The translations under genes were made by a program, and so were the position numbers. Shown piece after piece: positions 17,728 to 44,968 of a stretch of 61,753 bases of DNA. The notes under the pieces are model-generated. The model made no database searches, was not told the DNA's origin, and worked only from the letters and a program-made list of their open reading frames with translations. Source of the DNA: a virus. Its lineage: Duplodnaviria > Caudoviricetes. Every line of letters begins with the position of its first letter. Within the stretch, counting starts at the first letter, position 1. The DNA lies in IMG/VR virus record IMGVR_UViG_3300044643_000906, positions 1 to 61,753 of that record; one strand, 5' to 3'.

Positions 17728-17729
17728 TA

Positions 17730-28747: not shown

Positions 28748-31177
28748 TTACCCCCTCGGGCTCGGGACACCGTAGATGTCCAGCTGGTGAATCGCCACCG
28801 GGCCGGAGTCCCCAGCAGCACCGGAGAGTTCCAGAGCGACGTGACGGTCGTTACCCCGGAGGTCATCGATGGTCTTACCGGCGAACAGGGCGCGGCACAC
28901 GCCAGAGGAGATGTTCTCGTGGAGCGTCCCGGCGTCCATGTCAACCCGGGTCACAGGCTCAGTGGTGTCGTGTATGAACCCCGTGCCGCGGTCGCGTTCT
29001 ACGATGTTGACCCTCGGGTGCGGGCTGTTGTTGTAGTACATCCTGAGCTTCAGGAGGCTCTCGCCCTGAGTGGGCGTGAAGAGCACAGAGATGTTTCGAG
29101 CACCTCCATCCGGCAGGCCGTCGGTTGCCATTGAGTCGCTCGGGTACTCAAGGTTCCCGGTCTTGAAGAGGTACGGTATCGGGAGAAAGTCGTCGGATAT
29201 GAAGTACTCTGCCACGGCGGGGGTGCCGTTCTCCGGTGGCTCGATCACCAGCTGCCCGCTTGAGTATCCGTAGCCGGGGATGCGGACGTAGATGCCGAGC
29301 AGCTGCCCGTCTGCGGTGATTGCACTCTCCAGCACCGCCCCACACCCACCGGGTGCAGTGACCTTGGGAGGCTTGGTGTACCCGCTGCCGTAATTCTGTA
29401 TTGCAACACTTGCTATCCCGCCGTCCGACTTGTCCACATTTCCGGTGTTCAGCTGATAAGCCTTACCGGACGACGAGCCGTAGACGACACGACGCTGTCC
29501 GTTAGGCAGTACTACGGCAGCTGCTCCCACGAGCGGGGCAGGGTATCGCTCTTCCCACCATGCCGATGTCTGGAACGAGTAGACCAGCATCCGCGTTGGG
29601 TAGTCTCCGGGGCCGTCACCGATGAATCGCACAGAGCACCGCAGGAGGTACTCGGCAGGATCGGCCACAACGCTAAACCACTTCGACTTCGTGAAGTCGA
29701 TCCGGCTCGTGAACAAGTCTGCCACCCCGTCGGTGATCGACTTGATCTGCCCGCCGTAGTCCATCGTGTAGACGCCCTGAGCGTCCATGGAATACAGCAT
29801 GCCGTCGATCTCGTCCCAGCATCTCTGGTTGAGACAGCCGCGGTAACCGCCGACCGATACGTTCACGTCGATCAAAGGCTGTGCGACATAGGTGACGCGA
29901 TAGAAGTGCCGACTCTGAAACACGCCGAGCGTGCCGCCGTAGGGGACAAGGGCGGTGATCGAGTCTGCACCCTTGACGTTCGTCTGGATCAGCAGTTCGT
30001 TGATGTCTGGCATCGACTCCGGCTCGTCTACCTCGGAGTACTGAAGCGCGTTCGGACGCATGCCGGATGGATCGACAGCACACCACAGCCGGTCTTGGAA
30101 CGTGACGGCTACGGCGAAGTCGCTGGGAGGAATGCCGAATCGGTTGGCGTTGAGTTCACCGTTCGGCAGGATCACGGGCAGTCCTAGATACCCCGGTCGG
30201 TTGTAGTCGCGAAGCTCTTCGTCAGTGAGCGTGTCTTCGTCAGTCTCCCCGCTTACTCGGTAGAGCGTGAAGGACTGATTGGAAGTTGTGCGCCACCGTT
30301 CCAGCGTCAGGCCCTTGGCCTTGGCGGCAGCGGCTGCGGCCGAGTACCCAGACCACAGCAGCTTCTCTGCTCCATCTCCAGCGTCCAGTACGCAGACAGG
30401 AGAGAGATTTGAAACGCGAGGCCCACCCCGCGACTCAGGCGTGTCGTCAACGTATCGGTAGTAGCACTCATACTGACCGCGAACGTGGCAGCGTGCGATA
30501 GCCACTGCCGTGGCCCCGCCTTGAATGGGCGTGACTGTGGGAGGAGATGCGTAGCCGCTGCCCGGCTCGACAACAGATACGGCCGTGACCTTGCCACCAG
30601 CCACTGTCGCCTTAGCGGTCATTCCAGAGCCAGTGGTCGATGATACCGACAGCTTAGGCGGCGTCAGGTACTGCACCCCGGGGTTCACGATTGTGATGCT
30701 CTTGACCGGCACGGGAACTATCGCGGCAGGGCCACGCTCCGGCGGCGTGGCTGGCTGATCCTCCAGTACCGCCTCTAGCTCTAGCCCCTTGGCGTGCGAT
30801 TCAGAGAGATGCACGGCGGGCGTCTCGGCATACCCCTTGCCGTAGTCGCTCATGCGAATCTCGTCCAGCTGACCGTCTCGCAGGAACGCACGAGCCTTGG
30901 CCGGTCGCTCGCATGCACCGACGATGTCTACCGTGGGCGGCGTGTGATAGAGGTAGCCGAACTCGACAACGTCGATGCGCGGTATGTAGTACTTCTTCGC
31001 GCCCTGAGCCGTCACGACGGGGGCAGCGGTCGGGGCGTCCAGACCAGCTGGCACGATATCGCCAGTGCGTAGGTCAATCCGGTCGGGCCTGCCTTTGCCG
31101 TGATAGACGTATGCATACCCGTGAGGGCCGAGAGCTACCGTGGCTGGTGTGTTGGCTGGAACCGGCATGAGGATCAC
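28748..31177 (-). CDS. Tail nozzle/tubular protein B-like, with GxGYxxxP repeat insertions
   Basis: Propeller-type segments (FQDRLW, YSEVDEPE, ITALVPYG, GCLNQRCW) and several (N/D)xGxGYxxPP repeats. Follows the adaptor gene. Alternative ATG at 31168. Confidence 0.7.
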   Translation of the reverse strand: MILMPVPANTPATVALGPHGYAYVYHGKGRPDRIDLRTGDIVPAGLDAPTAAPVVTAQGAKKYYIPRIDVVEFGYLYHTPPTVDIVGACERPAKARAFLRDGQLDEIRMSDYGKGYAETPAVHLSESHAKGLELEAVLEDQPATPPERGPAAIVPVPVKSITIVNPGVQYLTPPKLSVSSTTGSGMTAKATVAGGKVTAVSVVEPGSGYASPPTVTPIQGGATAVAIARCHVRGQYECYYRYVDDTPESRGGPRVSNLSPVCVLDAGDGAEKLLWSGYSAAAAAAKAKGLTLERWRTTSNQSFTLYRVSGETDEDTLTDEELRDYNRPGYLGLPVILPNGELNANRFGIPPSDFAVAVTFQDRLWCAVDPSGMRPNALQYSEVDEPESMPDINELLIQTNVKGADSITALVPYGGTLGVFQSRHFYRVTYVAQPLIDVNVSVGGYRGCLNQRCWDEIDGMLYSMDAQGVYTMDYGGQIKSITDGVADLFTSRIDFTKSKWFSVVADPAEYLLRCSVRFIGDGPGDYPTRMLVYSFQTSAWWEERYPAPLVGAAAVVLPNGQRRVVYGSSSGKAYQLNTGNVDKSDGGIASVAIQNYGSGYTKPPKVTAPGGCGAVLESAITADGQLLGIYVRIPGYGYSSGQLVIEPPENGTPAVAEYFISDDFLPIPYLFKTGNLEYPSDSMATDGLPDGGARNISVLFTPTQGESLLKLRMYYNNSPHPRVNIVERDRGTGFIHDTTEPVTRVDMDAGTLHENISSGVCRALFAGKTIDDLRGNDRHVALELSGAAGDSGPVAIHQLDIYGVPSPRG

Positions 31178-31497: not shown

Positions 31498-32454
31498 TCA
31501 GGTGCCCCCGTCAGGCCCCATCGAATAGCCGCTGCCCGCATACGGAGCACTCGGGGTATCCGGGTTGGCGTTGTACGGAGCACGACGGCCAGACATGGGG
31601 GCGATAACGTCCTGCTCCATCGCCAGCTTGATATCCCGCTGGTACATGGTCGCAGCACCATCGACGTTCTTGCCCATCAGCCGTGCCAGCCAAAGCTCAC
31701 TGCCCGTGAGGACGGCGGTGAACATGTTTGGGGACACGTCGAGGTGATCCGAGATCACATACCGACAGTCGGTGTACACACCCGCCAGCGGAAGCTCCAG
31801 CGTCAGGGCATCGCCCTCGGTGCGAGACTCGATCTTCGACTGCTCGGCGTATGGGTACATGCCCGACAGGGGCTCGGGGTAGTTGCCCGGGGTGCCGATG
31901 CGGAAGATGGCACCGGCACATCGCAGCGGGAAGTTAGTGTTCTTGCCTGTCACCGCAGTACCGGCGACAGTGGCATAGCCGGTGCGGCACTGTGTTTCGT
32001 ACCCCATCAGCGTCAGCGGCTTCGGGCGACGGCGGTAGGTATATCGCAGCGTCGTCCCGGCCTTGGCCTGACCGGCGATGCGAATCTCCCAGCGGTCAAA
32101 CGTCTTCGGGTCTTGAGACTTCAAGACAGTCCAGTAGACGGGCTCGCCCAGAGTCAGGCTGCTCTGCTCCAGCTTCATCCACTCAGCTGGCGAGATGTAG
32201 GACGTGATCGTTGTGTTGTCGGGGCTGACGAGAGCGTCTACGTTGCTGCAATCTTCAGGCAGCAGGTAGGTGTTCTGCCCATCGACAGTGACGATGGTCG
32301 ATTCGGTGACGTACCACAGCCAATCCTTGGCGTTCGATACGTCACGATAGGAGTGATGCACGGCTGCCCGGAGAGCGCGATGCTCCTGATCCTGAGCGCC
32401 GCCGCCCGTGGACTGCATCAAATAGTCAATGGCGTCATGCGCTGTGTAGTACAA
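31498..32454 (-). CDS. Head-tail adaptor / tail tubular protein A-like
   Basis: DW.W......TVDGQNTY.LP.D, GEP.YW, YRRRP. TTG start with AAGGAG. Confidence 0.72.
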   Translation of the reverse strand: MYYTAHDAIDYLMQSTGGGAQDQEHRALRAAVHHSYRDVSNAKDWLWYVTESTIVTVDGQNTYLLPEDCSNVDALVSPDNTTITSYISPAEWMKLEQSSLTLGEPVYWTVLKSQDPKTFDRWEIRIAGQAKAGTTLRYTYRRRPKPLTLMGYETQCRTGYATVAGTAVTGKNTNFPLRCAGAIFRIGTPGNYPEPLSGMYPYAEQSKIESRTEGDALTLELPLAGVYTDCRYVISDHLDVSPNMFTAVLTGSELWLARLMGKNVDGAATMYQRDIKLAMEQDVIAPMSGRRAPYNANPDTPSAPYAGSGYSMGPDGGT

Positions 32455-32783: not shown

Positions 32784-34853
32784 TTAGTTCAGCACTACCC
32801 AAGTATCAGTGCCGGTCTTTATGAGCGTTACTCTGGAGATGGGGGTGGGGAGGGTTAACGAAGCCCCAGCACCACCGGCCAACGCGGGAGTCCCGCCGGT
32901 CAACGAGGCGTTCCAGTTAAGGGTGACTCCTGCAACCGCCGAGATGACGGTTGCTGATGTTGCCGATAGATCAAGAATCTCCAAGCGACTCCCGATGGCA
33001 AAAGCCGCGCTTGCGTTCAGCGGTATGAAAATCGTGACGGTTGCCGCACCAGTTGAGACATTGGCAATGGTGGCACTGCGGGCGGCAAGAGTTAAAGTGT
33101 AAGAGCTTGTCACAGCGACGTATGGGCGATCACCGATCAGCTTGCCGCTGACAGTCAGGTCACCGCCCAACTGGGAAGGTGCTGGCCCATCCGACCGGAA
33201 TGCAAAGTCCCCAACTCTCGGAACAGACGGGTTATTGTCAGTGCCGCGAGTCCTTGCAAGCACTGCGGTGTAGCTGCCTGATGAGACTGTGGCGTTTGCC
33301 TGTATGAGGCTTTCTCCATTACCACCAAAGGCAGAAGGTGCGGTGGCAGTAAGCGCGGTTGTATTTGTGAATCCTTCAAGGAAGATGCTAGGCGTCTTGA
33401 CATGGAAGCCAGTGAGAGGGGTCACGCCCACACCCAGCTTGGCATTCACAATCAGGTCGCCGGTCATCGTGTCGCCAGTGATGTTCACGTAGCGATTGTC
33501 CGCGTCCGCTTGGGTCATGCCGCCGCCGGGAGCCGTGCCGGTCAGGTCTGAGTAGTTCAGCACTGAGTTCACAAAAGCAGTGCCGTTCCAGCGGAGGACT
33601 TGCCCTGCGGCGGGAGTGGTGACCGTAACGTCAGACAGGTCATCCGCCTTAAGGGTGGGCACTCCATTGATGGCCGAAGCCGGAATGGACTTGGCAGCAA
33701 AGTTATGGGCGGTGCCAGCACTGGTGATGTTGCCAACTACCTCTAGGGTAGACCGCAGCTTGGTTGCTCCACCGACCTCTAGCAGGACTGACGGGGTTGA
33801 CCAACCAATGCCCACGTTGGACTTGAAGTACGAATCGGCATCACCCTGAAACTGGACAGCGTATGACCCGTCAGCCTTCGGAACATCAACGTACAGACCA
33901 ATGTTGCGGGTGCCGCCTCTTACGGTTGTTGCAAAGCCGTAATTCTGCGTAGCGGTGGCGGTTACACTGGCACTGACCCCGATCCCAGTGCTGACCGTGC
34001 CCGTAACCTCACCGCGAACCCCAGTAACTCCACCGCTTGTGGCAGACGTTCCAGCCGCAGCACCGAGAAGGCTAAGCCCTGTCTTCCCGTCACCGTTGCC
34101 GTTTGAGCGAAACGTGGCCGCAGCACCGCCGGAAGCAATGGTGCCTGCGACCGGGCCAGACTGAACCGTTAGGCCAACGGCGGCAGTGACCGAACCAGAG
34201 GCATCGACGCTGAAGTTCTTTGCGGAACAAACAAATGCGTCCGCACCAATGCTGGCAGTAGTGCCGGTGGCAGCGAGGTTCGTTAGAGCAAAAAAACTGT
34301 TTGACTGCCCTGTCTTGGCACCTGCAAGCGAGAGATCCATCGACCCGTCGAAAAAACCGTCCTGTGTCTCGGCACTGAGGGCGAAGACTTGTATCTGAGC
34401 CGTAGTCCTGTCCACTGCGCCGCTTGCAGGCTTGGTCTGCCAGCGGAGAAAACCCATGCCGGAGTTGGCGTTGACAGGGGTTGGGGCGGCAATGGTGCCA
34501 GACTTGCGGCGCAGATAAAAGCCGGGCGTACCACCAACGCTGTAGGTTTCGACGAAGCAATCAAGCGTTGATTCGCGCACGACCTGAAGCATCGTGCTGG
34601 AGTCGATCGCGGTTGGAGGTGCCGGTGTAGCGGCCCCAGTGACCAGACCCAGTGCCCCCGTCATTTTGTCGCCAGCCAAGTTGACATAGATCGCATCTAG
34701 GTCTGGCTGAGAGACAAGGAGTTTCCCGTCTGTGCCTAGCTTGGCAAGGTTCTTGGCATCGGCACTGACTACGGTCGGGCCTTCTGCCCCATCGGCTCCC
34801 TGAAGGGGTAGCCACTTGGTGCCGTCGAAGATGTGTGGTTTTGGATCAGCCAT
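32784..34853 (-). CDS. Tail fibre / receptor-binding protein (689 aa)
   Basis: Two YVNxxGDxMTG motifs, DDLSDV...AGQVLRWNGT.F, T/A/G/S-rich, C-terminal K.GTDTWV. Confidence 0.8.
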   Translation of the reverse strand: MADPKPHIFDGTKWLPLQGADGAEGPTVVSADAKNLAKLGTDGKLLVSQPDLDAIYVNLAGDKMTGALGLVTGAATPAPPTAIDSSTMLQVVRESTLDCFVETYSVGGTPGFYLRRKSGTIAAPTPVNANSGMGFLRWQTKPASGAVDRTTAQIQVFALSAETQDGFFDGSMDLSLAGAKTGQSNSFFALTNLAATGTTASIGADAFVCSAKNFSVDASGSVTAAVGLTVQSGPVAGTIASGGAAATFRSNGNGDGKTGLSLLGAAAGTSATSGGVTGVRGEVTGTVSTGIGVSASVTATATQNYGFATTVRGGTRNIGLYVDVPKADGSYAVQFQGDADSYFKSNVGIGWSTPSVLLEVGGATKLRSTLEVVGNITSAGTAHNFAAKSIPASAINGVPTLKADDLSDVTVTTPAAGQVLRWNGTAFVNSVLNYSDLTGTAPGGGMTQADADNRYVNITGDTMTGDLIVNAKLGVGVTPLTGFHVKTPSIFLEGFTNTTALTATAPSAFGGNGESLIQANATVSSGSYTAVLARTRGTDNNPSVPRVGDFAFRSDGPAPSQLGGDLTVSGKLIGDRPYVAVTSSYTLTLAARSATIANVSTGAATVTIFIPLNASAAFAIGSRLEILDLSATSATVISAVAGVTLNWNASLTGGTPALAGGAGASLTLPTPISRVTLIKTGTDTWVVLN

Positions 34854-34913
34854 TGGATTGCCCTAGTGTTCTGGGCCGGGAGGCGAGATTGCCATCCCGG
34901 CAGTGACCCCTAC

Positions 34914-35519
34914 TTAGACCTGAAACCAGATAGCACCCTTCGCGGCACCCGTAGGTTCAGCGGCCTGCGGGCCATAGACTTCCTGCGACACGCCATCGGC
35001 ACCGTCCGCACCAGCCTCACCCTTCTCGCCGGGATCGCCCTTCGCACCATCGGCACCGGCAACACCGTCATCGCCGTCCGCACCAGCGGGGCCTTGCGGG
35101 CCAACCGGGCCACGCACGGGGCCGACGTTGATCCACGCCGCCGAATCCCACACGATCCCGTCGCCGGGCTGGGCAGGGCCGCTCGCGCTGGCGGGAGTGC
35201 CAACCGGAACCGGATCACCAGCAAGCCACATATCACCAACATCGGGAGCAGCATCAGGCGGGTAGGTAGTGGCAGTGCCCTTGATGGTCACGCCGCTGCC
35301 CGAGTCGCCCTTGTCACCCTTCTCACCGGCAGGGCCTTGCTCGCCCGGATCGCCCTTCGGGCCAGCCTCACCAGCGGCACCGTCCGCACCGGCAGGGCCA
35401 GCGGGGCCGACCTCGCCCTGCGCGCCGTCAGCACCGGGCTGACCATCCGCACCAGCCGTACCAGCGGGGCCACGCAGAGAAATCCACTCAACGCCATTAA
35501 AGCAAAGGACATCAGCCAT
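34914..35519 (-). CDS. Collagen-like fibre protein
   Basis: Two long Gly-X-Y tracts. Confidence 0.85.
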   Translation of the reverse strand: MADVLCFNGVEWISLRGPAGTAGADGQPGADGAQGEVGPAGPAGADGAAGEAGPKGDPGEQGPAGEKGDKGDSGSGVTIKGTATTYPPDAAPDVGDMWLAGDPVPVGTPASASGPAQPGDGIVWDSAAWINVGPVRGPVGPQGPAGADGDDGVAGADGAKGDPGEKGEAGADGADGVSQEVYGPQAAEPTGAAKGAIWFQV

Positions 35520-35532
35520 GTTCAGGTTCCTT

Positions 35533-35775
35533 TCAAGTTAAGTCATCAAGAGTTCGGTAGGTCTTCAGTTGGTCGAGAGTTCGATAAACCTTCTTCGCTT
35601 CTTCGTTAATCCAGTGGTCACCCACGCTGGCAGTGGTGGGCATGGTGGTCTGAACGAAGACGTTGATTGATTTGCCCGGCTCGCCCTGTGGGCCTTGAGG
35701 GCCAACACTGCCGCCGCCACCCGATGAAATCGGTTGCCAGCCCGTGCCGTCGAAGTAGTAGAGGTTGTTTGCCAT
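35533..35775 (-). CDS. Short collagen-containing fibre linker protein
   Basis: YYFDGTGW, GPQGPQGEPG, PTTASVGDHW. Confidence 0.75.
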   Translation of the reverse strand: MANNLYYFDGTGWQPISSGGGGSVGPQGPQGEPGKSINVFVQTTMPTTASVGDHWINEEAKKVYRTLDQLKTYRTLDDLT

Positions 35776-37466
35776 TACGCAACCTTTGCTTTGAGTTCTG
35801 CAATGTCAGCCTGCGCTTGCGTGAGTGCCGCCCGCAATGCCGTCAACTCGTCCACTAGGGTCAACTCATCAGCCACGAACTTTGGAGCGAAGTTGCCGTC
35901 AACGTAGTCCTTGCGGGTCAGGTGGCTGGCTGCCGTAGGGGCCGCAGCGGTGGACTCCACGTTCGCGGAAATAGACACAACGCCAGAGGCATTGGTTACG
36001 GTCGGGCCACCTGAGCCAAACCGAATGGCTGTACCGGTTGCCCGCACCTCAAGCAGCACCACCGCAGCGACACTGGTAGTGGTCACAAGCAGCAAGTTGG
36101 AGTTGTTGTTGCGGAAAGCAACGCCACCGCTGGAGCCAAAGATGTTGTAGGTCGTGGCCCAAGTCATCGTGTTGACTGCGGTGGGGGCCACGATGGTGCC
36201 CGTCATAGTCCCGCCGGTAGTCTTCAGGAATGCCGTGCTTCCTGAGACAGCCCCATCAACGTACTTCTTGTTTGTGAGGTCGTTGTCTACGGCTGGGGTG
36301 AAGGGTGTCTGTGGGTTCGCACCGAGGAACTGCACAACAGCCGTGTCTGGAGCAGCAACAAAAGCCTGCTTGCCACCCGGCATATACAGACGGTAATAGG
36401 AACCGTCGTAGTATGTATAAACGTCGGTCCCGTTGAACCCAGCGGGGGCGGCGTTTGGCGCATACCGCAGGGGGCCGTTCATGACATCCCCTGCCTTGTT
36501 GACATAGTTGCCAGCAAGGGAAGCCGTGCAAACTCCATTGGCATCAATTGCCAAGCCAGTGCCAATCTTGATGCCACCCAGAATTGCAGCACTGGCCTTA
36601 GGCAAAACATAGTCACTACCAGCACTTGCACTGATGGTGCCGTCAGCCGTGACCGTGATTCCACTACCAATCTTCACGCCACCAAGCACAGTGGCAGTGG
36701 CAATAGCGGTAGGGCCAGCGGGTCCGACTTCACCCTGCGGACCAGCGGGGCCAGTGACAGAATCACCCTTGGGGCCAGCAACCCCGGGCTCGCCCTGAAT
36801 GCCTTGAATGCCTTGGGGGCCAGCAACACCCTGTGGGCCTTGCACTGGGCCAGAGTCTTGCCATGCAGCCTTGGTATCATCCCAAACAAATCCCCTAGCT
36901 GGCTCGGGGGTCGAGACAACATAGAGGTCGCCCTGAGTGGCAGAAGCTGGAAGGTCGCCTTGGGTAGCGACCGTGCCTGCATACCTGATCCCAAGACCCG
37001 GTTGACCTTGAATACCTTGAGGACCCTGAATGCCTTCTGGGCCTTGAATGCCCTGCTCGCCCTGAGGGCCAGCTTCACCAGCCACGCCGGGATCACCCTG
37101 CGGACCAGCGGGACCAGCTACACCGGCTTCGCCATTCACACCGGGCAACCCTTGCGGAATCTTGAACGACAGGGACGCCTTGTTCTCGTTGCCGATATTG
37201 ATCACTTCGGCTGGCAGCCCACCTTCAATCGTGATCGTTTCGGCTACTTCGATTGTGGCAGCAAGGCCCGGTTCACCTTGGGGGCCGGGTTCACCTTCAC
37301 CCGGCGAACCCGGAGGGGCAGTGCCGTTCGGCTGAATCCACAAGTCACCCACAGCCGCCACGCCGGTCGGCTCGGTGTCGGAGACGATGTGTGCGGAGTC
37401 GGAGCCGCCGCCACCTGTGGAGATGGGGAGCCAAGCCGTGCCCGACCAGTAGTACATCGCAGCCAT
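35775..37466 (-). CDS. Collagen-like tail fibre protein (563 aa)
   Basis: Gly-X-Y tracts, two LGG(V/I)KIG.G repeats, two LT.K.YVD motifs, C-terminal coiled coil. Confidence 0.85.
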   Translation of the reverse strand: MAAMYYWSGTAWLPISTGGGGSDSAHIVSDTEPTGVAAVGDLWIQPNGTAPPGSPGEGEPGPQGEPGLAATIEVAETITIEGGLPAEVINIGNENKASLSFKIPQGLPGVNGEAGVAGPAGPQGDPGVAGEAGPQGEQGIQGPEGIQGPQGIQGQPGLGIRYAGTVATQGDLPASATQGDLYVVSTPEPARGFVWDDTKAAWQDSGPVQGPQGVAGPQGIQGIQGEPGVAGPKGDSVTGPAGPQGEVGPAGPTAIATATVLGGVKIGSGITVTADGTISASAGSDYVLPKASAAILGGIKIGTGLAIDANGVCTASLAGNYVNKAGDVMNGPLRYAPNAAPAGFNGTDVYTYYDGSYYRLYMPGGKQAFVAAPDTAVVQFLGANPQTPFTPAVDNDLTNKKYVDGAVSGSTAFLKTTGGTMTGTIVAPTAVNTMTWATTYNIFGSSGGVAFRNNNSNLLLVTTTSVAAVVLLEVRATGTAIRFGSGGPTVTNASGVVSISANVESTAAAPTAASHLTRKDYVDGNFAPKFVADELTLVDELTALRAALTQAQADIAELKAKVA

Positions 37467-37639
37467 TACTTCTTGTCCTTGTCGTCAGGGTGTTGCCGGG
37501 CGTGTTCGTCTAGCCATTTCTCAAGGGCGCGTTGCTCTGCCGCCATGAACCAATCGCAGGCGAGTGCGAACAGGTAGCACACCAGCACGAAGCCGAGCGT
37601 GGCTGCACCCGCACCGACGATGTGGAAGTTAAGGTGCAT
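37466..37639 (-). CDS. Small single-TM protein (57 aa, MHLNFHIVGAG...DDKDKK)
   Basis: Manual translation. TGATG and TAATG overlaps on both sides. Hydrophobic N-terminal half and charged tail. Confidence 0.6.
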   Translation of the reverse strand: MHLNFHIVGAGAATLGFVLVCYLFALACDWFMAAEQRALEKWLDEHARQHPDDKDKK

Positions 37640-39258
37640 CAGTAGGCGTATGCCGTAGCTCCAGTGAGGGTGGCTGCGGTCATGGTGCCGTCTGGGCAGA
37701 TGCCGATTGAGCCGTCAGTCCCCCAGCGGACAAACACGCGACGGTAGGTGCTGCCTGTCTGAATCCCGTAGACAAGGCTGTTGTATTCAGCCAGCGGCTT
37801 CGGGAAGTTCGCCGGGAGCCTGCGAACTTGCGTGAACGAGCCTGTGGCCGAGACATTGATCGTCACCTCGCCGCGAAGCTGGAGAATGCCGTTCAGGACG
37901 CGGGCCTCAACCGTCCCGGCCCCGGCGACTTGCTGGCAAACCGTCCAGTCGATGTCAGCCGGGACAGTCTTCCCGCCCGCCATCATCTTCTTGACTTCAT
38001 CCAGCACCGACTGCTTGAAGTCAGCCAGTGCGGGATTGTTGATCGAAGACGCACCAATCGGGTTGATCGCCGCCAGCCGGTCATCGACCTGCTTGCGGGA
38101 GTACAACATCAGGGCCATCTGGTTGTCGAAGTCGATCTTGCTGAACGCTTGGTCGATCCGCATGAAGCGGTCGTCGCACTGCTTCTGCGTGTAAACGTCA
38201 GACTGAAAGACGAACCTGTCAACGTCCACAAGCGTCAGGAACTTGGAGTCGGCCTGAGTCTTCGTGTAGGCATCAATCGTCGGAGCGGCCTTGCTCTCAA
38301 GTGCGTTGATGCGGTCAGCGAAGGGGTCGAAGTCCGACCGCAGTGCCACATAGTCGTTGACCAAGCCGACCGCGAACACAAGACGCGGGCCGTAGCCTTC
38401 GCCAGTGTCGGTGTAGGTCAGAGCAGCAGGAGGAAGTGCAGAGTCACCAAAGCCGACAGCCTGCGTCACGACAGTCTTGGCGAGGATGGCCTGTGCGTTG
38501 TCGCTGATCTTCGCGTAAGCGGTTAGGTCAACAGGGCCGACCTGAGAAATGATCTCCTCGATCTGGGCCTGCGTAAGCTGACCACTGATGGAGTCGCCAA
38601 TGGCCTCGTCAACTTCAGCTTTGGTGTAGGTGGTGGCCTTGTCGGCCTTCAGGTCGAGTTTGGCGGCGGTCTGGATGCCGATCTGTTCTGCAACGAAAGG
38701 GATTTGGTCGGCAACACCCTGCACTCCAAGATTGGCATCATCCACGCCTTGCTGAAGGGCAGCAACCTTTGCATCTACCTCTTGCTTGGTGTACCGCTCT
38801 ACGAACGCAACCGTACAAGCGGCCTTGATCTCGTCGGTCTTGCCATCGACGTATGCAGTCGTCGCGTAAGCCGACAGGTCAACCGTGCCAGTGGCATTCT
38901 CGGTCGTGCCGGTGGGGTCAATCCACAGGTCGCCAATCTCCACGCCCGGCGGCGGCTCAACATCAGAGACGATGTGTTGTGCGTCCGTACCATCGACGCC
39001 CGGTGCGCCATCGGCTCCCGGCTGACCGTCAACCCCATCCTTGCCATCAACGCCGTCTTTGCCCGGTGCCCCATCCGCACCGTCCTTGCCCGGCTGACCG
39101 TCCGCACCCGGAGGGCCAGCTGGGCCAGCTACAGTCCCGACGAGGTCAAGAATCTGACCAACTGTCACTCGCTGCGTGACAGCACCGTTCACGCCCGGAA
39201 GAAGCGTAGTGGCGACTGCTGTGCCAGCTGGCAGCTGCGTTATCTTGGAGTCAGCCAT
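37639..39258 (-). CDS. Tail fibre protein (539 aa)
   Basis: MADSKITQLP N-terminus, a collagen tract, YTKxE/QxD repeats, and a C-terminal knob (LRG...LP.NF). Confidence 0.8.
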   Translation of the reverse strand: MADSKITQLPAGTAVATTLLPGVNGAVTQRVTVGQILDLVGTVAGPAGPPGADGQPGKDGADGAPGKDGVDGKDGVDGQPGADGAPGVDGTDAQHIVSDVEPPPGVEIGDLWIDPTGTTENATGTVDLSAYATTAYVDGKTDEIKAACTVAFVERYTKQEVDAKVAALQQGVDDANLGVQGVADQIPFVAEQIGIQTAAKLDLKADKATTYTKAEVDEAIGDSISGQLTQAQIEEIISQVGPVDLTAYAKISDNAQAILAKTVVTQAVGFGDSALPPAALTYTDTGEGYGPRLVFAVGLVNDYVALRSDFDPFADRINALESKAAPTIDAYTKTQADSKFLTLVDVDRFVFQSDVYTQKQCDDRFMRIDQAFSKIDFDNQMALMLYSRKQVDDRLAAINPIGASSINNPALADFKQSVLDEVKKMMAGGKTVPADIDWTVCQQVAGAGTVEARVLNGILQLRGEVTINVSATGSFTQVRRLPANFPKPLAEYNSLVYGIQTGSTYRRVFVRWGTDGSIGICPDGTMTAATLTGATAYAY

Positions 39259-39792: not shown

Positions 39793-40338
39793 TTAGAGCT
39801 TCCGCTTCAGGGCGTGCCGCTTTTTCACGGCTTCTACAGCGTCAGCCCGCTTCATCTTGGGGTTGGCGGCTAGCTCCTTGCGGACTAGCTCGTTGACCAG
39901 CCGCGGGGCCATGTCAATCCTCTTGGGCGGCGGGGCCTCGCCCGGGCTGTAGTTGATCGTCCCCTTGATCTCCAGCCTGCGATCTTTGCAGACCTGAAGC
40001 ACGTCGTCCCGGCTGCTCACCCAAGCTTTGGGGTCACGGGCACCACGCTTGTCCGCGATGCCCGAGAAGTAGAACTTGCCAGCCGTGGATATCCCGGCCT
40101 CCTTGGCCTCGCGGATCATCCGCTGGGCCTGCTTCTTGGGCAGCTTGTCTAACCAGTTGCCGTCGAGGTGCCCCTCTTGAAACGTCCTGTCAACGCCAGA
40201 CACGCCGGGCGGCTGCTGGAGTGCGACCATCGTGGCCCAGCGTTCGCCGTAGCCAAGCGCGAGCACCTTGAGAAAGTGCTCTCGGACGGGGGCAGGGGCG
40301 GTCGCGATGTCGGGCGGGAGGGTTTCAGTTACGGGCAT
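39793..40338 (-). CDS. Hypothetical protein
   Basis: ATG at 40338 with GGAG RBS, downstream of the portal gene. Confidence 0.65.
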   Translation of the reverse strand: MPVTETLPPDIATAPAPVREHFLKVLALGYGERWATMVALQQPPGVSGVDRTFQEGHLDGNWLDKLPKKQAQRMIREAKEAGISTAGKFYFSGIADKRGARDPKAWVSSRDDVLQVCKDRRLEIKGTINYSPGEAPPPKRIDMAPRLVNELVRKELAANPKMKRADAVEAVKKRHALKRKL

Positions 40339-40807
40339 TGGTCGTCTCCATAGCTCGTTTGTAGAAGGTAACGAGGTCGAACGCAGGCGTGCCGCCCGCC
40401 TCGATGTAGTCGGCAAGCTTTCGAAGAAGCTTCGGTGAGTCCTGCATTTTCCCGGCAGCAGTGTTGCACGGCTGACACAGCAGGCCCCTCACCTCGCCCG
40501 TCTCGTGGCTGTGATCGACGCAGAGGCGGGGCTGGATTGCGCACTGCTCCTCGCATACCGCACACACGCCCTTCTGCCCCGACAGCAAGCCTTCGTACTG
40601 CGCAGGCGTGATGGCGTAGTGACGCCACAGGTTGGCGTGTCTCCTGCGCAGACGCTGTCGAGGGGCCGCCCTCCGAAGACGCTCGTATTCAAGATATGCC
40701 GCCCACGTCTCGGGCGTGCAATCACGCTTCCGGCCGCAAAGCGGCCTCGGCTCTACGCCACGCTTACTGATCGCCGCTACCTCTGCGTCGAACTCGTCCT
40801 CGGTCAT
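40325..40807 (-). CDS. Endonuclease VII-family (homing) nuclease
   Basis: Y.IT...Y..L...Q.G.CAVC...L.VDH.H.TG.VRGLLC..CN. Confidence 0.9.
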   Translation of the reverse strand: MTEDEFDAEVAAISKRGVEPRPLCGRKRDCTPETWAAYLEYERLRRAAPRQRLRRRHANLWRHYAITPAQYEGLLSGQKGVCAVCEEQCAIQPRLCVDHSHETGEVRGLLCQPCNTAAGKMQDSPKLLRKLADYIEAGGTPAFDLVTFYKRAMETTNARN

Positions 40808-40809
40808 CG

Positions 40810-42942
40810 CTAGCCTCCTTGCTGCGGTGGTGGTGGTTGCGCGGGATTGCCAGCCGCCGCCCCGGGCGCGGGTGATGAAGGAGGAGCATCAGGCGCTGCA
40901 CCGGGGGGCGGCATGGGCTGTGGCGGGGGAGGTGGGGGTGGAGGAGGCGGGAGAAGGTAGGGGCGTACATCGAGGTCGTTGGCGTCAGCCCAATCGGAAA
41001 GAAGGGCATTGAGCGGCCCCGGATTCCCGGCTCCCGCCAGCTGCTGCAACATCGGCCCCAGCGTCTGGAGGGCCGCGTTCATGTTCTCTTGCTTGAAGGA
41101 TTTGTTGGGCTTCTTAGCGGAGCCCGCCTCGATGCGGTAAGTGAACTCGCGTGCGATCTCGCCAGCTGGGTCACCGCCGGAGGTCGTGAGATGGATCGAC
41201 CACGCCTCGGCACCAAGCGGGCCGAGCACCGGGGCAACGTCCTGCGGCTGCAACAGCCACCGGGCAGCCATTGCTTCCTTCCTCGCTATGTCGGAGAGCC
41301 AATCCTCCACGCTCGATGCCAGATCGTCTGGCCTGATCTGCATGCTGTCAGCCTTGACCTGCGCCTCGCTAGCACTTCTCAGTGCCGAGCGGGTTTGGCC
41401 GTAGACCAATTCCGTAAGCCCACAGCGCTTGTCGAACATTTGCGACACCTCGTTGATGAGGTTGGGCAAATCCGACGTGACGTTAGGGGACTGAAATACC
41501 GACATGATTTCGTTGACCGACTTGCCGAGAGCCTCGCTGATCTCAACGATCTTGAACCCGTTTTCGCTGGGCGCAAGAATCTGCTGCTTGAGGTCATAGT
41601 CAGCTGCCTTGCTCACGCCGATGATCGTCTCGCAGCTGATGGCGACTCGCTGCATGAGGAACGAGAAAGCCCATTGCATGAACCGTAGCTCACCGATTCC
41701 GGGCTTGATGTAGGAGAGCGGCCACAGCGAGTTCGGCTTAGGGTTGGGTGCCCACATCGAGAACGGCCAACCCTGAGCGTCAGCTGCCCAGAACGGTATC
41801 GGCCAGCTGGAGCGAGCACGCAGCGACTGCGGCAGGCCCTCTTCGTCGGTCGGCTCTTTCAAGCACTCGGGCGGGATGTTCAACGGGAACTCGACGCCAT
41901 CGGCCACGACTAGGTAGCAGAAGTCTCCAAGGGGATCGAAGATGCCCCTGTCTTCCTTCTTTGCACCCTTGAGACGGTCGCCAAAACCGCACTTCGACCA
42001 AATCTTCCAGTAGGTGACGAGGTCGTTGCTCTTCCCTGTGCGGTGCTTCTGCGAGCCGTTGTAGTCGTTACGCCGGTCGTCCACCTGCCGCGATGCGGAC
42101 GAGTAGCTCTCAAGGTTGGGCTTGAGGTCGTCGCGAGACAGGCCGAATTGTCGAGCCACCTGATCGATAGGCTGCACGCACCGCTTGGCACACCACTGAA
42201 TCTCCTGAATCACCTGAGCGTCTGGGTCAAGCAGTAGGTTGTCCACGCTATCCATGAACGAACCGATGAGGAGTGTCGGCTGTGCGGGCGGCACGTTCTC
42301 TACCTGCACTGCCTCAGTCCACAGCACACCGCCCCCCTTGATGATGCCCTCATCGATGGCTCGTCGGGAGTGCCCCTTCAAGTCGTTCTCGACGGGCGTG
42401 TAATTCAGGTAGGCCGACAGCAGTTCGGCTTGCAGCTTCTTCTTCTCCTCTTGCAGGATCACAGCCTGAGAGGTGTCCATGTAGGTCTGCAACGCCGGAT
42501 CGGGCATCGGCTGCCCGGTCATCGGGTCGATCTGCATGGACTCGGGACTCAGGCCCAGCATCTCCGGCGGCACGGCAGGGAACTTCCGCGGCGTGACAGT
42601 ACGCACCGGGTTCCGGGCGTACAGCACCGCGCCGATGAGCTTGACGGCTTCGAAGACACGGTTGATGGAGAGACGAAACGCAGGGGCAGGTGTCGGCCGG
42701 GACATGATGCTCTGGCCGCGAACATTGCTCTGGTTCATCGACCATGCACCGAGCCCGTCGAAGAACGCCATGCCCTCTCGGGCGTCGGCGTCGAACTGCG
42801 ACTTAGCCCGCTTGGCGGAAGCGATCTTCTGGAGCCAGCTGGCCGCAATCGGGCGAAGGGGAGACTCAGGAGGCAGCTTCGCCTGCTTGGGGTTCTCGTT
42901 GAGCGGGCCGTCGTCCTTGACCTCAAAGCCGTTGTCTTCCAT
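40810..42942 (-). CDS. Portal protein (large podovirus type)
   Basis: 710 aa, downstream of TerL. ARNP, L.DPDA and SASEA motifs and a Pro-rich tail. Confidence 0.8.
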   Translation of the reverse strand: MEDNGFEVKDDGPLNENPKQAKLPPESPLRPIAASWLQKIASAKRAKSQFDADAREGMAFFDGLGAWSMNQSNVRGQSIMSRPTPAPAFRLSINRVFEAVKLIGAVLYARNPVRTVTPRKFPAVPPEMLGLSPESMQIDPMTGQPMPDPALQTYMDTSQAVILQEEKKKLQAELLSAYLNYTPVENDLKGHSRRAIDEGIIKGGGVLWTEAVQVENVPPAQPTLLIGSFMDSVDNLLLDPDAQVIQEIQWCAKRCVQPIDQVARQFGLSRDDLKPNLESYSSASRQVDDRRNDYNGSQKHRTGKSNDLVTYWKIWSKCGFGDRLKGAKKEDRGIFDPLGDFCYLVVADGVEFPLNIPPECLKEPTDEEGLPQSLRARSSWPIPFWAADAQGWPFSMWAPNPKPNSLWPLSYIKPGIGELRFMQWAFSFLMQRVAISCETIIGVSKAADYDLKQQILAPSENGFKIVEISEALGKSVNEIMSVFQSPNVTSDLPNLINEVSQMFDKRCGLTELVYGQTRSALRSASEAQVKADSMQIRPDDLASSVEDWLSDIARKEAMAARWLLQPQDVAPVLGPLGAEAWSIHLTTSGGDPAGEIAREFTYRIEAGSAKKPNKSFKQENMNAALQTLGPMLQQLAGAGNPGPLNALLSDWADANDLDVRPYLLPPPPPPPPPPQPMPPPGAAPDAPPSSPAPGAAAGNPAQPPPPQQGG

Positions 42943-42945
42943 TCG

Positions 42946-43287
42946 CTAGTCCTTCTTGTGCTTCGCCAGAACGGTCACCATCTGCGGGAGGATCGACTCC
43001 AGACGCTTCAGCAGTGCGGTCTTCGGGTGCAGCACCCACGCTCCCCACTGACGCCACTGCGGGTTCTCCTGAAGACCGGGGTCTTCCAGATGCCGCACGC
43101 TCGGCTTCTCGATGAAACCAAGGTCGGGACTGAAGATCAGGACTGAAACAGTCTTCACGCCCGGCCGACGGCATACCCAGCCGAGAACCGGCTCGGTGAG
43201 ATCGAGCGACGACGAGTAGTACAGAACCATGTCGCCAAGCTCGACTGACGGCATTTCGAAATCGCTAGACCCATTCTGAGATGTCAT
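42946..43287 (-). CDS. Hypothetical protein
   Basis: Between TerL and portal. ATG at 43287 with GGAGGA. Confidence 0.65.
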   Translation of the reverse strand: MTSQNGSSDFEMPSVELGDMVLYYSSSLDLTEPVLGWVCRRPGVKTVSVLIFSPDLGFIEKPSVRHLEDPGLQENPQWRQWGAWVLHPKTALLKRLESILPQMVTVLAKHKKD

Positions 43288-44968
43288 GCGCACTATCCTC
43301 CATTTCCTGAGACGAGAGGTCTGACTGTGGGCCGAGATAAGTGAACTTCGCCGGGCCCATCCGTTTACGGCGGCGCTCCATAAAGTCAATCATCCACTGA
43401 GGCATCTCGGGTTCCAAGTCAGTTTTCTTCTGTGGAACGTACTTAGGCTCGGCTGCAAATAGGTACTCCATGCACTGCACAGCATGGCACTCGCCCTTCG
43501 TGTTGGGCTCGTCAGTAACTACCGGCGTGCCGTTAACGATGACGGTCTTCTTCCGGTATCGCTTGAGTTCACGCTCAAGGTTCGGGCATGCATCACGCAG
43601 CACCCGGAGCTTGGTCTTGCCGTCCGGTCGAACGTGCAACGCGGAGCGAACAGCACTCGTTCGTGCGGCTACTTCGTCGCAGCCAGCCATGAACGCAGAC
43701 CCCGTAGAGAGCGAGCGTACCCCACGCTTCCTAAGCTCCTCTACATATTGAACGACAACCTGTCGCCCGGAGCCTATATCTCGCAGCCTTCCGCCGTGCA
43801 TGTCGATGATGAAGCTATAGAACGTCTGTCCCTTCACGACCTCTGCCAGCTTTTCCCCGAACGTCACGGCATTGCACTGCCGGATGTAGAGTTCGTCATA
43901 GATGACTGCATATGTGCTGTCAGGCGGGACGGCGAGAAACAGTACTGCGCAGACCTGATGACCCGGGTCTACCGCGAGGTATCGAGTCCACTCTTGGGGG
44001 ATCGTGCCACTGGGCAGCTGTGCCCGATCCATCCCATGCACGCTCATGTGGAAGCGTGGGTAAACCAGCACAGAGTCGGTGAGGAACTCGCCCTCGGATC
44101 GCATCCGAAGAACGTCCTCGCCCGCCGCGGCCCACCGCTCGATGGCCTTGGCTTTTTCTCCATCTTCAATGTGATCGTTATCAAGGAAGCGGAGAACGTA
44201 CTTCCTAATGTTCGGGTTCGGGTCTTCGCTCTCGGCGGCACGGTCGGCACGCTCGGACAAGCCCAGCAGCGACTCCGACCGGGAATGCGGCATGGCCGAC
44301 CACAGAAATCGGCCCTTCCTGTCAGCGAGCCTCGCCTGCAATTCAGGGATGAGGTTGTCTTGAGGGATGTCCTCGTCCACCCACACGAGGTCGGCGGAAA
44401 AGCCTTGGGGCGGCTCTGATTCGGCTGAGAAGAAGAAGATGCGTGTGCCGTTGGTTAGCTCGATGCAGTTGGCGTAGTTGGCCGACTTTTGTATCCAGCT
44501 GATCGACTTGATCATCCTCGGCGGAATCAGGGGCGGCGCAGGCTTGGACTCGCTCTTACGATCCGCATCTGTCTTGGGATCGAACGCACGCCACTGCTTC
44601 GTGGTCAGGTCGCGGATGATGCGAAACGCACCAGCCCGGAGGAGGTAAGGGACGCAGACCATACCCAAATGGGAATAGCTGCGACCGATCACCGCTATCA
44701 CCGCATCGCTCTTGGGATACTTGTTGTACGGGTCAGTGCCGGTGGCAGCCCGTGCCACCTCGATGGCGGTACACATCGTCTTGCCTGAACGATTGCCTCC
44801 GATGACCAGACGCTCGCTGACCGTGTCGGCGTGCATCCTGTCCTGCAACGGAGACGGGCGGTACAGACGCAGGGCCTCGATGCGGCGGTCGTTAAGTTCC
44901 GCCTGAAGCTCCCGCAGCTTGTCCTTCTGGTAACTAGACGTTACCGGGATCGACGGCAGCGGGTTCAC
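43265..44968 (-). CDS. terL: Terminase large subunit
   Basis: Walker A GGNRSGKT, Walker B VWVDE, LDN.H, and RNase H-like AVDPG...YDELY. Confidence 0.93.
   Translation of the reverse strand: MNPLPSIPVTSSYQKDKLRELQAELNDRRIEALRLYRPSPLQDRMHADTVSERLVIGGNRSGKTMCTAIEVARAATGTDPYNKYPKSDAVIAVIGRSYSHLGMVCVPYLLRAGAFRIIRDLTTKQWRAFDPKTDADRKSESKPAPPLIPPRMIKSISWIQKSANYANCIELTNGTRIFFFSAESEPPQGFSADLVWVDEDIPQDNLIPELQARLADRKGRFLWSAMPHSRSESLLGLSERADRAAESEDPNPNIRKYVLRFLDNDHIEDGEKAKAIERWAAAGEDVLRMRSEGEFLTDSVLVYPRFHMSVHGMDRAQLPSGTIPQEWTRYLAVDPGHQVCAVLFLAVPPDSTYAVIYDELYIRQCNAVTFGEKLAEVVKGQTFYSFIIDMHGGRLRDIGSGRQVVVQYVEELRKRGVRSLSTGSAFMAGCDEVAARTSAVRSALHVRPDGKTKLRVLRDACPNLERELKRYRKKTVIVNGTPVVTDEPNTKGECHAVQCMEYLFAAEPKYVPQKKTDLEPEMPQWMIDFMERRRKRMGPAKFTYLGPQSDLSSQEMEDSAHDISEWV

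Follow-up and report, generated by a model that had tools for sequence, protein, structure and literature searches.

Background

The long tail fibre of phage T4 is assembled in series from gp34, gp35, gp36 and gp37, whose genes are adjacent and lie in their physical order, and we know of no split shared domain at its joints. In chaperone-usher pili, each subunit has an incomplete fold, and the following subunit completes it with its own N-terminal extension, which gives a non-covalent chain ordered by subunit compatibility. Branched receptor-binding systems are reported to occur in the Klebsiella phages KP32 and K11 and in the coliphages K1-5, G7C and CBA120, where a domain resembling the branching domain of T4 gp10 is combined with a conserved N-terminal docking peptide (PMC13352976, PMC6872550). 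In the podophages A1002, GP4 and VP1, chain-like fibres are made of 11 dimers that stand side by side on the fibre-dock domain of one nozzle-rope protein (PMC13730344). Here we analyse five consecutive fibre genes in the virus record IMGVR_UViG_3300044643_000906 (Duplodnaviria; Caudoviricetes), whose whole length of 61,753 bp is called the window. The record, which carries direct terminal repeats, is the complete genome of an uncultured phage.

The five genes lie on the minus strand between the portal and adaptor genes, and encode proteins of 539, 563, 80, 201 and 689 amino acids (aa). They contain a small domain, here called the node, that is either intact or divided into an N-terminal half (socket) and a C-terminal half (plug). 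We consider it probable that the fibres assemble by hairpin complementation between trimers, which would give a backbone of collagen-flanked nodes that has two connectors and three tips for receptor binding. A first-pass annotation of the window had proposed that each fibre docks on the preceding one through a split domain, and this idea is supported by the N-terminal position of plugs, the gene order in 19 of 23 cases among relatives, the balance of sockets and plugs, fusion and fission events, unsplit homologous units and the collagen rods. The same annotation described the joint as beta-strand complementation. Complementation fits the comparative data, but the donated part appears to be a two-strand hairpin, not a single strand.

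Mounting several receptor-binding proteins on one attachment site is central to host-range evolution and to phage engineering. Known systems solve this with a large branching domain and a docking peptide, whereas the present phage seems to use a tiny domain shared by two proteins, four times over and with dedicated connectors.

The fibre genes and their half-domains

All five open reading frames (ORFs), and each socket and plug motif originally quoted from them, are present on the minus strand, to which all fibre-gene coordinates below refer. The 539-aa primary fibre gene (37639..39258) encodes a putative virion-anchor N-terminus, a collagen stretch, the unpaired socket S1, a coiled body and a receptor-binding tip, and has no plug. 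S1 (HIVSDVEPPPGVEIGDLWID; residues 95-114; 38917..38976) is matched by the hidden Markov model (HMM) described below, and a plug is absent within 40 residues downstream. This protein is the only one of the fibres with the N-terminus MAD.KI..LPAG...TQRVTV, which is found in the first fibre gene of relatives.

The 563-aa fibre gene (35775..37466) encodes an N-terminal plug (MYYWSGTAWLPI; residues 4-15; 37422..37457), an unpaired socket (HIVSDTEPTGVAAVGDLWIQ; residues 26-45; 37332..37391), collagen, an intact node, a fibre body and a tip. The intact node (GIRYAGTV...GDLYVV...GFVWDDTKAAWQDSG; approximately residues 160-206; 36849..36989) shows a four-strand pattern at low model confidence. The 80-aa connector gene (35533..35775) comprises a plug at residues 5-16, a short collagen rod, a socket at residues 37-57 and a short tail. 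Its family contains 18 clusters with 53-94% identity, and L5, Y7, G10, W13, P15, I16, G52, D53, W55 and I56 are among its invariant residues. The 201-aa connector gene (34914..35519) encodes a plug at residues 5-15, then collagen, an intact node at residues 77-134, more collagen and a socket at residues 179-201 (QEVYGPQAAEPTGAAKGAIWFQV; 34917..34985), directly after which comes the stop codon. The 689-aa terminal fibre gene (32784..34853) has only a plug (HIFDGTKWLPL; residues 7-17; 34803-34835), followed by a short collagen stretch, a fibre body and a tip.

Nodes and half-nodes flank collagen throughout, and in the 563-, 80-, 201- and 689-aa proteins the plug is located within 7 residues of the initiating Met. 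The window contains four unpaired sockets, four unpaired plugs and two intact nodes, all in the five fibre genes, and because the record is complete these numbers are the tally for the whole genome. The intact nodes in the 563- and 201-aa proteins bear out the earlier observation that the two-part domain also occurs within single chains. Likewise, the proposed roles, with the 539-, 563- and 689-aa proteins as tips and the 80- and 201-aa proteins as connectors, fit the domain layout.

All fibre genes begin with ATG and have ratios of nonsynonymous to synonymous polymorphism (pN/pS) of 0.1-0.4 (0.11 and 0.37 for the 80-aa gene). Stop and start codons overlap by one base from the 539-aa gene through a 57-aa ORF and the 563-aa gene to the 80-aa gene. 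Among relatives, the gap that follows the 201-like gene measures 12-97 nucleotides (nt) and places the next gene in any of the three frames. On these grounds, the fibre genes are separate genes under selection and are probably co-translated.

The first fibre protein of related loci occurs in two N-terminal forms, namely MAD.KISALPAG...TQRVTV or ...ERGYQRIRFRQDTAENWLKNDPILASGE.GYVIG...LKVGDGW..WSQLPW, and the same socket follows both (L004:4084-4836, L006:3838-4578, L019:5080-5742 and others; L numbers designate related loci). The second form presumably resembles the N-terminal motif of Mtd or of hyaluronidase-type prophage fibres.

Occurrence of the motifs in the window and in relatives

A six-frame scan of the window with loose regular expressions placed three of three plug matches and six of eight socket matches in the cluster. 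The two other loose socket matches are elsewhere, on the plus strand, and the plug pattern failed to catch the plug of the 689-aa protein. HMMs were trained solely on the six sockets and six plugs of the window, run on stop-to-stop ORFs and then iterated twice. In the first round (3,579 ORFs), a clear gap separated matches from noise, and all matches of at least 8.8 bits were within ORFs of the fibre cluster. With the iterated HMMs, matches of at least 9 bits in the window occur only in the five fibre ORFs. In a search of 96 sources (17,891 ORFs), a score of at least 10 bits is reached by 248 socket matches and 199 plug matches on the fibre strand and by none on the opposite strand, where the best scores are 7.3 bits (socket) and 8.3 bits (plug).

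Related viral contigs were gathered by using the adaptor protein, a profile of the 80-aa connector (the 18 clusters) and a profile of the N-terminus of the terminal fibre. Positional counts refer to the 81 non-redundant sources that are left after removal of 15 loci that duplicate contigs. A 16-residue match in a contig of a gut metagenome-assembled genome (L015) was taken as chance.

Structure of the node

An AlphaFold2 model of the 201-aa protein, based on an alignment of 11 relatives, is confident only at residues 77-136, with a predicted local distance difference test (pLDDT) score of 81-90. The intact node within this segment has four strands (78-83, 96-100, 120-124 and 129-134). Because the modelled node is four-stranded, the socket is predicted to comprise the first two strands (a and b) and the plug the hairpin of the last two (c and d), with the split falling in the loop between b and c. 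The socket consensus is h-I-V-S...E-P...G-D-L-W-I, whose two strands are exemplified by HIVSD and GDLWI, and the plug consensus is Y-Y-W-x-G-x-x-W-x-P-I. An intact node spans approximately 45-60 residues, with collagen triple helices on either side. In the same model, the N-terminal plug is a low-confidence hairpin, the C-terminal socket is unstructured, and these terminal halves are not paired together.

The node matches no Pfam family. PDB sequence searches returned only collagens for the 563-aa protein, nothing at E<=10 for a node profile and nothing meaningful for P0150, a long homologue discussed below. In a fold search of the 201-aa model against 48,161 PDB chains, no match had a Z score of at least 5, and no fold was assigned. 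The best matches were 7chu_A (Z 4.5; root-mean-square deviation (rmsd) 4.0 over 58 residues) and 8rk3_a (Z 3.9; rmsd 2.4 over 45 residues). The intact node has a faint likeness to the trimerisation domains of collagens XV and XVIII (Z 2.9; rmsd 4.6-4.7 over 50-53 residues). Matches in BFVD were set aside as collagen-driven. The analysis defines a widespread fibre node domain that has neither a Pfam family nor a solved sequence relative.

Positions of sockets and plugs in relatives

Unpaired plugs are strongly associated with gene starts, as 74 of 83 unique examples are within 8 residues of an in-frame start codon, compared with none of the 19 plugs of intact nodes. Sockets that end no more than 6 residues from a stop codon number 23 unique cases, and in 19 of these a plug-initiated gene follows within 250 nt. 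Three of the four exceptions (L004, L042 and L046) have an insert of approximately 0.6 kb before a later plug gene. In the fourth (L019), the plug-initiated gene was missed by the HMM and was recovered by the regular-expression scan. Inserts of this size between a socket-ending and a plug-starting gene are found in L004 (approximately 8865-9449), L006 (8883-9464, a 170-aa ORF), L042 and L046, where they break up a pair of genes that elsewhere lie close together.

Where a node is split at a gene boundary, the residues after the socket and those before the plug sum to 9-15, with a median of 11 (n = 21, including one likely spurious frame). The loop of compact intact nodes is 10-16 residues long. 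This agreement implies that the gene boundary cuts the node cleanly in one loop.

In automated counts, the window and L004, L006, L008, L009, L011, L012 and L014 have as many unpaired sockets as unpaired plugs (four of each), and so do L013, L025 and L026 (three of each). Equality was scored in 9 of the 11 closest sources. Several relatives have an additional divergent pair that the HMMs missed, in which the anchor ends in ...SSIWINPKG and a fibre gene beginning with MPSLNYFDKDKQEWVAIPLGGG starts two bases on. Covariation between socket and plug residues was viewed by eye only, is confounded by phylogeny and is not claimed.

In the connector and in proteins like the 563- and 201-aa ones, the spacing between plug and socket differs in length by multiples of three residues. 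Insertions and deletions in three-residue steps are what a real collagen rod should show, so the plug and socket of one chain would be at opposite ends of the rod. Judging from this sequence pattern, pairing of both halves within one chain is unlikely.

Fusion, fission and unsplit homologues

The anchor protein of L009 contains an intact node followed by an unpaired socket, and the homologous sequence in L014 is divided over two proteins. Residues 1-92 of the L009 anchor match residues 1-89 of the 229-aa anchor of L014 (57% identity, E 7e-30); the match stops at the socket, after which the L014 protein continues into its own tip. The remainder of the L009 anchor matches a 245-aa plug-initiated protein of L014 (45% identity, E 2e-39). 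In the window, residues 1-113 of the 539-aa protein match the anchor of L013 with 71% identity, and this match ends at GDLWI. Residues 127-507 match the body of a plug-initiated fibre of L004, also with 71% identity, starting just past the plug and a GGG sequence. Thus, the 539-aa protein appears to be a recombinant that joins an anchor, up to its socket, to a fibre body that is plug-initiated elsewhere. In addition, protein P0119 has a plug at the place occupied by the virion anchor in the homologous tip protein of L014. These cases indicate that sockets and plugs are borders at which fibre modules are exchanged, and that a plug can replace a virion anchor. A split node would explain the precise ends of such recombination, including that of the 539-aa protein.

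A connector profile (plug, collagen, socket) was searched against 1.84 billion representative proteins and matched 452 clusters at E<=1e-3, with 106 of them at E<=1e-10. Among the best 150 of the 452 clusters, approximately 30 represent small proteins (64-150 aa) in which the match begins at the N-terminus, and the others are fibres of 200-3,900 aa, each matched in 4-20 stretches. Three of the long fibres, P0019 (1423 aa, 14 matched stretches), P0020 and P0150, show tandem intact nodes joined by linkers. These beaded single-chain fibres share with the window both the node and the plug-linker-socket unit that lies between nodes. In contrast to the window, they keep every node in one chain and often have helical linkers in place of collagen. 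The connector thus corresponds to the inter-node unit of a beaded fibre, made as a separate protein.

There is perhaps an even chance that the socket and plug are a general, portable connector of phage fibres. Such a connector would be a node of approximately 45-60 residues that is cut in the b|c loop and re-formed between trimers, is used across a wide clade of uncultured podophages and derives from the tandem nodes of long beaded fibres, which occur in hundreds of clusters.

The repeat of P0019, P0020 and P0150 reads ...TFYQ..AP....GDLW.DTDD.NKLYRWNG..W..., occurs in up to 14 or more copies with alanine-rich linkers and is widespread; no Pfam family and no PDB sequence relative was found for it. 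A distant variant of the node (GDLWWDS...GQL..WY.DPNSSQWV) occurs intact at the extreme C-terminus of one protein of L055 (6761-9509), and W.W/FDG.KWVAI is found close to the N-termini of the next proteins. This variant, too, may come as a split node. Anchor-type proteins of four loci (L009:3477-4274, L013:5112-5609, L014:5653-6390 and L057:4470-5540) end in a repeated unit, ...VGG.PV..GGKRYLLPL.EE, and the gene after them starts with MPAP.R..PY... and lacks a plug. Perhaps this end and this start form a second, different docking junction.

Proposed assembly and alternative explanations

In the proposed assembly, whose physical contacts, trimer stoichiometry and docking order we infer, the five genes would specify one multi-protein receptor-binding apparatus held together by a node domain split between polypeptides. 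The trimer of the 539-aa protein, as the sole virion-anchor protein, would present an unfinished node. The N-terminal hairpins of the 563-aa trimer would complete this node, and the 563-aa protein would in turn offer the next unfinished node to the 80-aa connector. The socket of the 80-aa connector would receive the 201-aa connector, whose own socket, the final element of its chain, would receive the 689-aa fibre. The outcome would be a backbone with collagen-flanked nodes and receptor-binding tips contributed by the 539-, 563- and 689-aa proteins.

Prediction of a complex, which had been suggested as a check, was made for one pair, with three copies of residues 135-201 of the 201-aa protein and three of residues 1-70 of the 689-aa protein. 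The interaction prediction scores from aligned errors (ipSAE) were 0.33, 0.37 and 0.38, above the controls (best 0.00), the partner had a pLDDT of 79, and at least 95% of contacts were shared between runs. The result was graded as weak support, and no interface was returned. The mark was passed in calibration by 58 of the 80 solved complexes and by 2 of the 110 mismatched pairs; at scores of 0.60 or lower, however, only 7 of the 80 complexes passed, along with both of the passing mismatches, and the calibration used single-chain pairs, unlike this 3+3 job. The score therefore adds little alone, although it is compatible with what the comparative data already made likely.

Several observations weigh against the proposed assembly. 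The sole direct test of contact is weak by its own calibration and lacks a returned interface, partners were assigned from gene order only, and the phage is uncultured, so that the apparatus is known here from genes alone. Nine of the 83 unpaired plugs are away from any start codon. A model of the N-terminus of the 563-aa protein has a mean pLDDT of only 29.5, and so gives no structural argument against within-chain pairing there. In L012-L014, successive proteins have near-identical plugs (SDVRIWDGAAWVSLKG and SDVRIYDGAAWVSLKG) though they are meant for different sockets, and docking may therefore be partly promiscuous.

The balance of halves is also imperfect. In the automated counts, sockets outnumber plugs by one in L001 (4/3) and L007 (5/4); each of these loci has one internal plug that fell below the threshold (GIVWNGTSY and FVWDDPKAAW, respectively). 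Distant loci show an apparent excess of sockets, for example L023 (6/3), L024 (5/3) and L057 (5/3) in the automated counts. Divergent plugs follow internal sockets in distant loci (SFWVYDAATSTW), and by eye the numbers are equal in L019, L023, L034, L036, L038, L042 and L046; L057 retains one extra socket even after such inspection. Some socket-like motifs have no visible partner, namely IYVGTTAPGNLSTLWLNPAG in the anchors of relatives and GDLWL in a 318-aa protein of L057 and a 231-aa protein of L013.

The strongest alternative, which we nonetheless regard as unlikely, is that plugs and sockets pair between trimers without positional specificity, giving mixed branched arrangements whose architecture is not encoded in gene order. 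The near-identical plugs on two successive proteins of L012-L014 would be expected in that case, the socket of the 539-aa protein is very much like that of the 563-aa protein, whose plug in turn closely resembles that of the 80-aa protein, and proteins with both halves could in principle join head to tail. Yet the loci L001, L013 and L014 lack a 563-type fibre, and there the connector carries a plug of the 563 type (FYWSGTEWLPI or YYWDGSAWLPI) instead of the usual YYFDGTGWQPI. This exchange suggests, from the sequences, that plug type follows the socket to be entered. The regular succession of C-terminal sockets and plug genes (19 of 23) also favours ordered docking.

A slightly less probable alternative is that the half-motifs do not pair at all, but are self-sufficient caps that nucleate or register the adjoining collagen, with attachment occurring by other surfaces. 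Such caps would account for the constant position of nodes beside collagen and for the faint resemblance to trimerisation domains of collagens XV and XVIII (Z 2.9), and the weak complex score is in line with them. They would leave unexplained why a complete genome has equal numbers of unpaired halves, why the cuts made by gene boundaries fall in the b|c loop and leave two pieces that together are about as long as an intact loop, and why an intact node was split into a socket end and a plug start (L009 and L014). The restriction of the virion-anchor type of N-terminus to the 539-aa protein is also unaccounted for.

It is much less probable again that in the 563- and 80-aa proteins the plug folds with the socket of its own chain as a circularly permuted node, which would leave only the halves of the 539-, 201- and 689-aa proteins unpaired. 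Only approximately 10 flexible residues (STGGGGSDSA) separate plug and socket in the 563-aa protein, whose N-terminal model is too poor to argue against such pairing. However, the order of plug, short linker and socket also occurs after an intact node in the anchors of L001 and L009, and there the plug is the partner of the socket before it. Collagen that varies in three-residue steps separates the halves in the 80-aa family, the terminal halves are unpaired in the model of the 201-aa protein, and the 539-, 201- and 689-aa proteins would still have two sockets and two plugs in need of partners.

Finally, a single long beaded fibre gene that was broken by mutation or misassembly, or whose pieces are rejoined by frameshifting or read-through, is hardly credible: long unsplit homologues do exist, and the 201- and 689-aa genes of the window share a frame and are 60 nt apart, but more than 20 distinct viral contigs have the split architecture, the spacing after 201-like genes varies through all three frames, each piece has an ATG start and a pN/pS of 0.1-0.4, and the ends of the 563-, 80- and 539-aa proteins are not sockets, hence these are not consecutive pieces of one chain. 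Read-through from the 201-aa gene into the 689-aa gene was considered for the shared frame and rejected because that frame is not conserved in relatives.

Genomic context

From its gene content, the phage is judged to be short-tailed (a podophage). The large terminase gene (43265-44968; PF03237) and the portal gene (40810-42942; PF23899 at 17.5 bits, below the cut-off of 30) lie on one side of the fibre cluster. The gene for an SU10-type adaptor (31498-32454, minus strand; PF24175 at 34.2 bits, above the cut-off of 27) and that for an 809-aa nozzle-like protein (28748-31177) lie on the other. Of these two markers of an SU10-like (Kuravirus-type) tail, only the adaptor reaches its Pfam cut-off. 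A recombination endonuclease VII gene (40325-40807, minus strand; PF02945, E 6.8e-25) immediately follows the portal gene and precedes the fibre cluster. Three very large ORFs (1239, 833 and 1280 aa; 14008-24073, minus strand) lie further downstream, past the tail genes; they match no Pfam family and are probably internal or ejection proteins of the podophage.

The 57-aa ORF (37466..37639, minus strand) overlaps both of its neighbours, the 539- and 563-aa genes, by one base, and encodes one predicted membrane helix and a charged tail (...AEQRALEKWLDEH...). Homologues are found at the equivalent place, after a fibre gene, in L004, L006, L007, L008, L012, L013 and L014. The product could be a membrane protein linked to the fibre, such as an exclusion or assembly factor.

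PHROGs annotates the 539-, 563- and 201-aa proteins as tail fibres (phrog_3904, E 5.2e-25, for the 563-aa protein). The Pfam Collagen family (PF01391) is above its cut-off of 27.2 bits in three of the five proteins, namely the 539-aa (33.8 bits, E 2.8e-8), 563-aa (49.7 bits, E 3.2e-13) and 201-aa (54.7 bits, E 8.6e-15) proteins, and the Pfam scan of the five found nothing else at E<=0.1. No cultured phage appears to be close to the window phage. Comparison of the fibre-region DNA with cultured phages gave only short collagen-like matches of 50-77 bases. By tblastn against cultured phages, the portal and 80-aa proteins found nothing, and residues 1-300 of the 563-aa protein found only an unrelated fibre motif at residues 260-300.

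Comparison with known systems

Literature searches of main text for strand or donor-strand complementation in phage tail fibres, and for node motif strings, found no relevant paper, and the RBPseg atlas does not mention collagen. We regard the split-node junction as a variant of the branched receptor-binding systems that was not found in print. In those systems, the virion anchor is on one primary protein only and the genes with docking peptides come after the primary gene, as they do in the window (PMC13352976). Like the secondary proteins there, which start with a short conserved docking peptide, four of the five fibres are plug-initiated, and an anchor-type N-terminus is found only in the 539-aa protein. 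However, the T4 gp10-like XD2/XD3 domain comprises approximately 240 residues, whereas the putative docking site in the window is approximately 20 residues, or half of a collagen-embedded node of 45-60 residues. The Pfam scan found no T4 gp10-like branching domain in the five fibre proteins, and the 539-aa protein has no room for one, because only approximately 35 residues separate the end of its collagen (at approximately residue 92) from its body (from residue 127). The peptide in the window also appears to complete a fold rather than to bind a finished domain, and up to five proteins would be chained, two of them pure connectors.

The podophages A1002, GP4 and VP1 likewise have a fibre of several small proteins that is attached by beta-sheet augmentation (PMC13730344). 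In the window, by contrast, split nodes would connect trimeric fibres, either end to end or as branches. The T4 long tail fibre resembles the window in having several fibre proteins from adjacent genes in series. The only trace of T4 fibre sequence in the window is a match to PF03903 (the T4 gp36 family) at residues 491-524 of the 563-aa protein, with 19.1 bits under a cut-off of 26.

The mechanism proposed for the window is like donor-strand complementation in pili, in that an N-terminal extension would complete the preceding fold. In the window, a two-strand hairpin would enter a two-strand socket in a trimeric, collagen-flanked node, whereas in pili a single strand enters an immunoglobulin-like pilin. 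The nine window proteins scanned gave no match to a pilin, chaperone or usher family, and by analogy the system would work like donor-strand complementation without kinship to pilins. If the socket and plug are indeed a general, portable connector, approximately 15 N-terminal residues would suffice to attach a foreign receptor-binding protein to a phage of this kind and would constitute a minimal connector tag. Whole fibres and connectors could then be added, removed or swapped as cassettes, and the split node would be the fibre counterpart of donor-strand complementation in pili.

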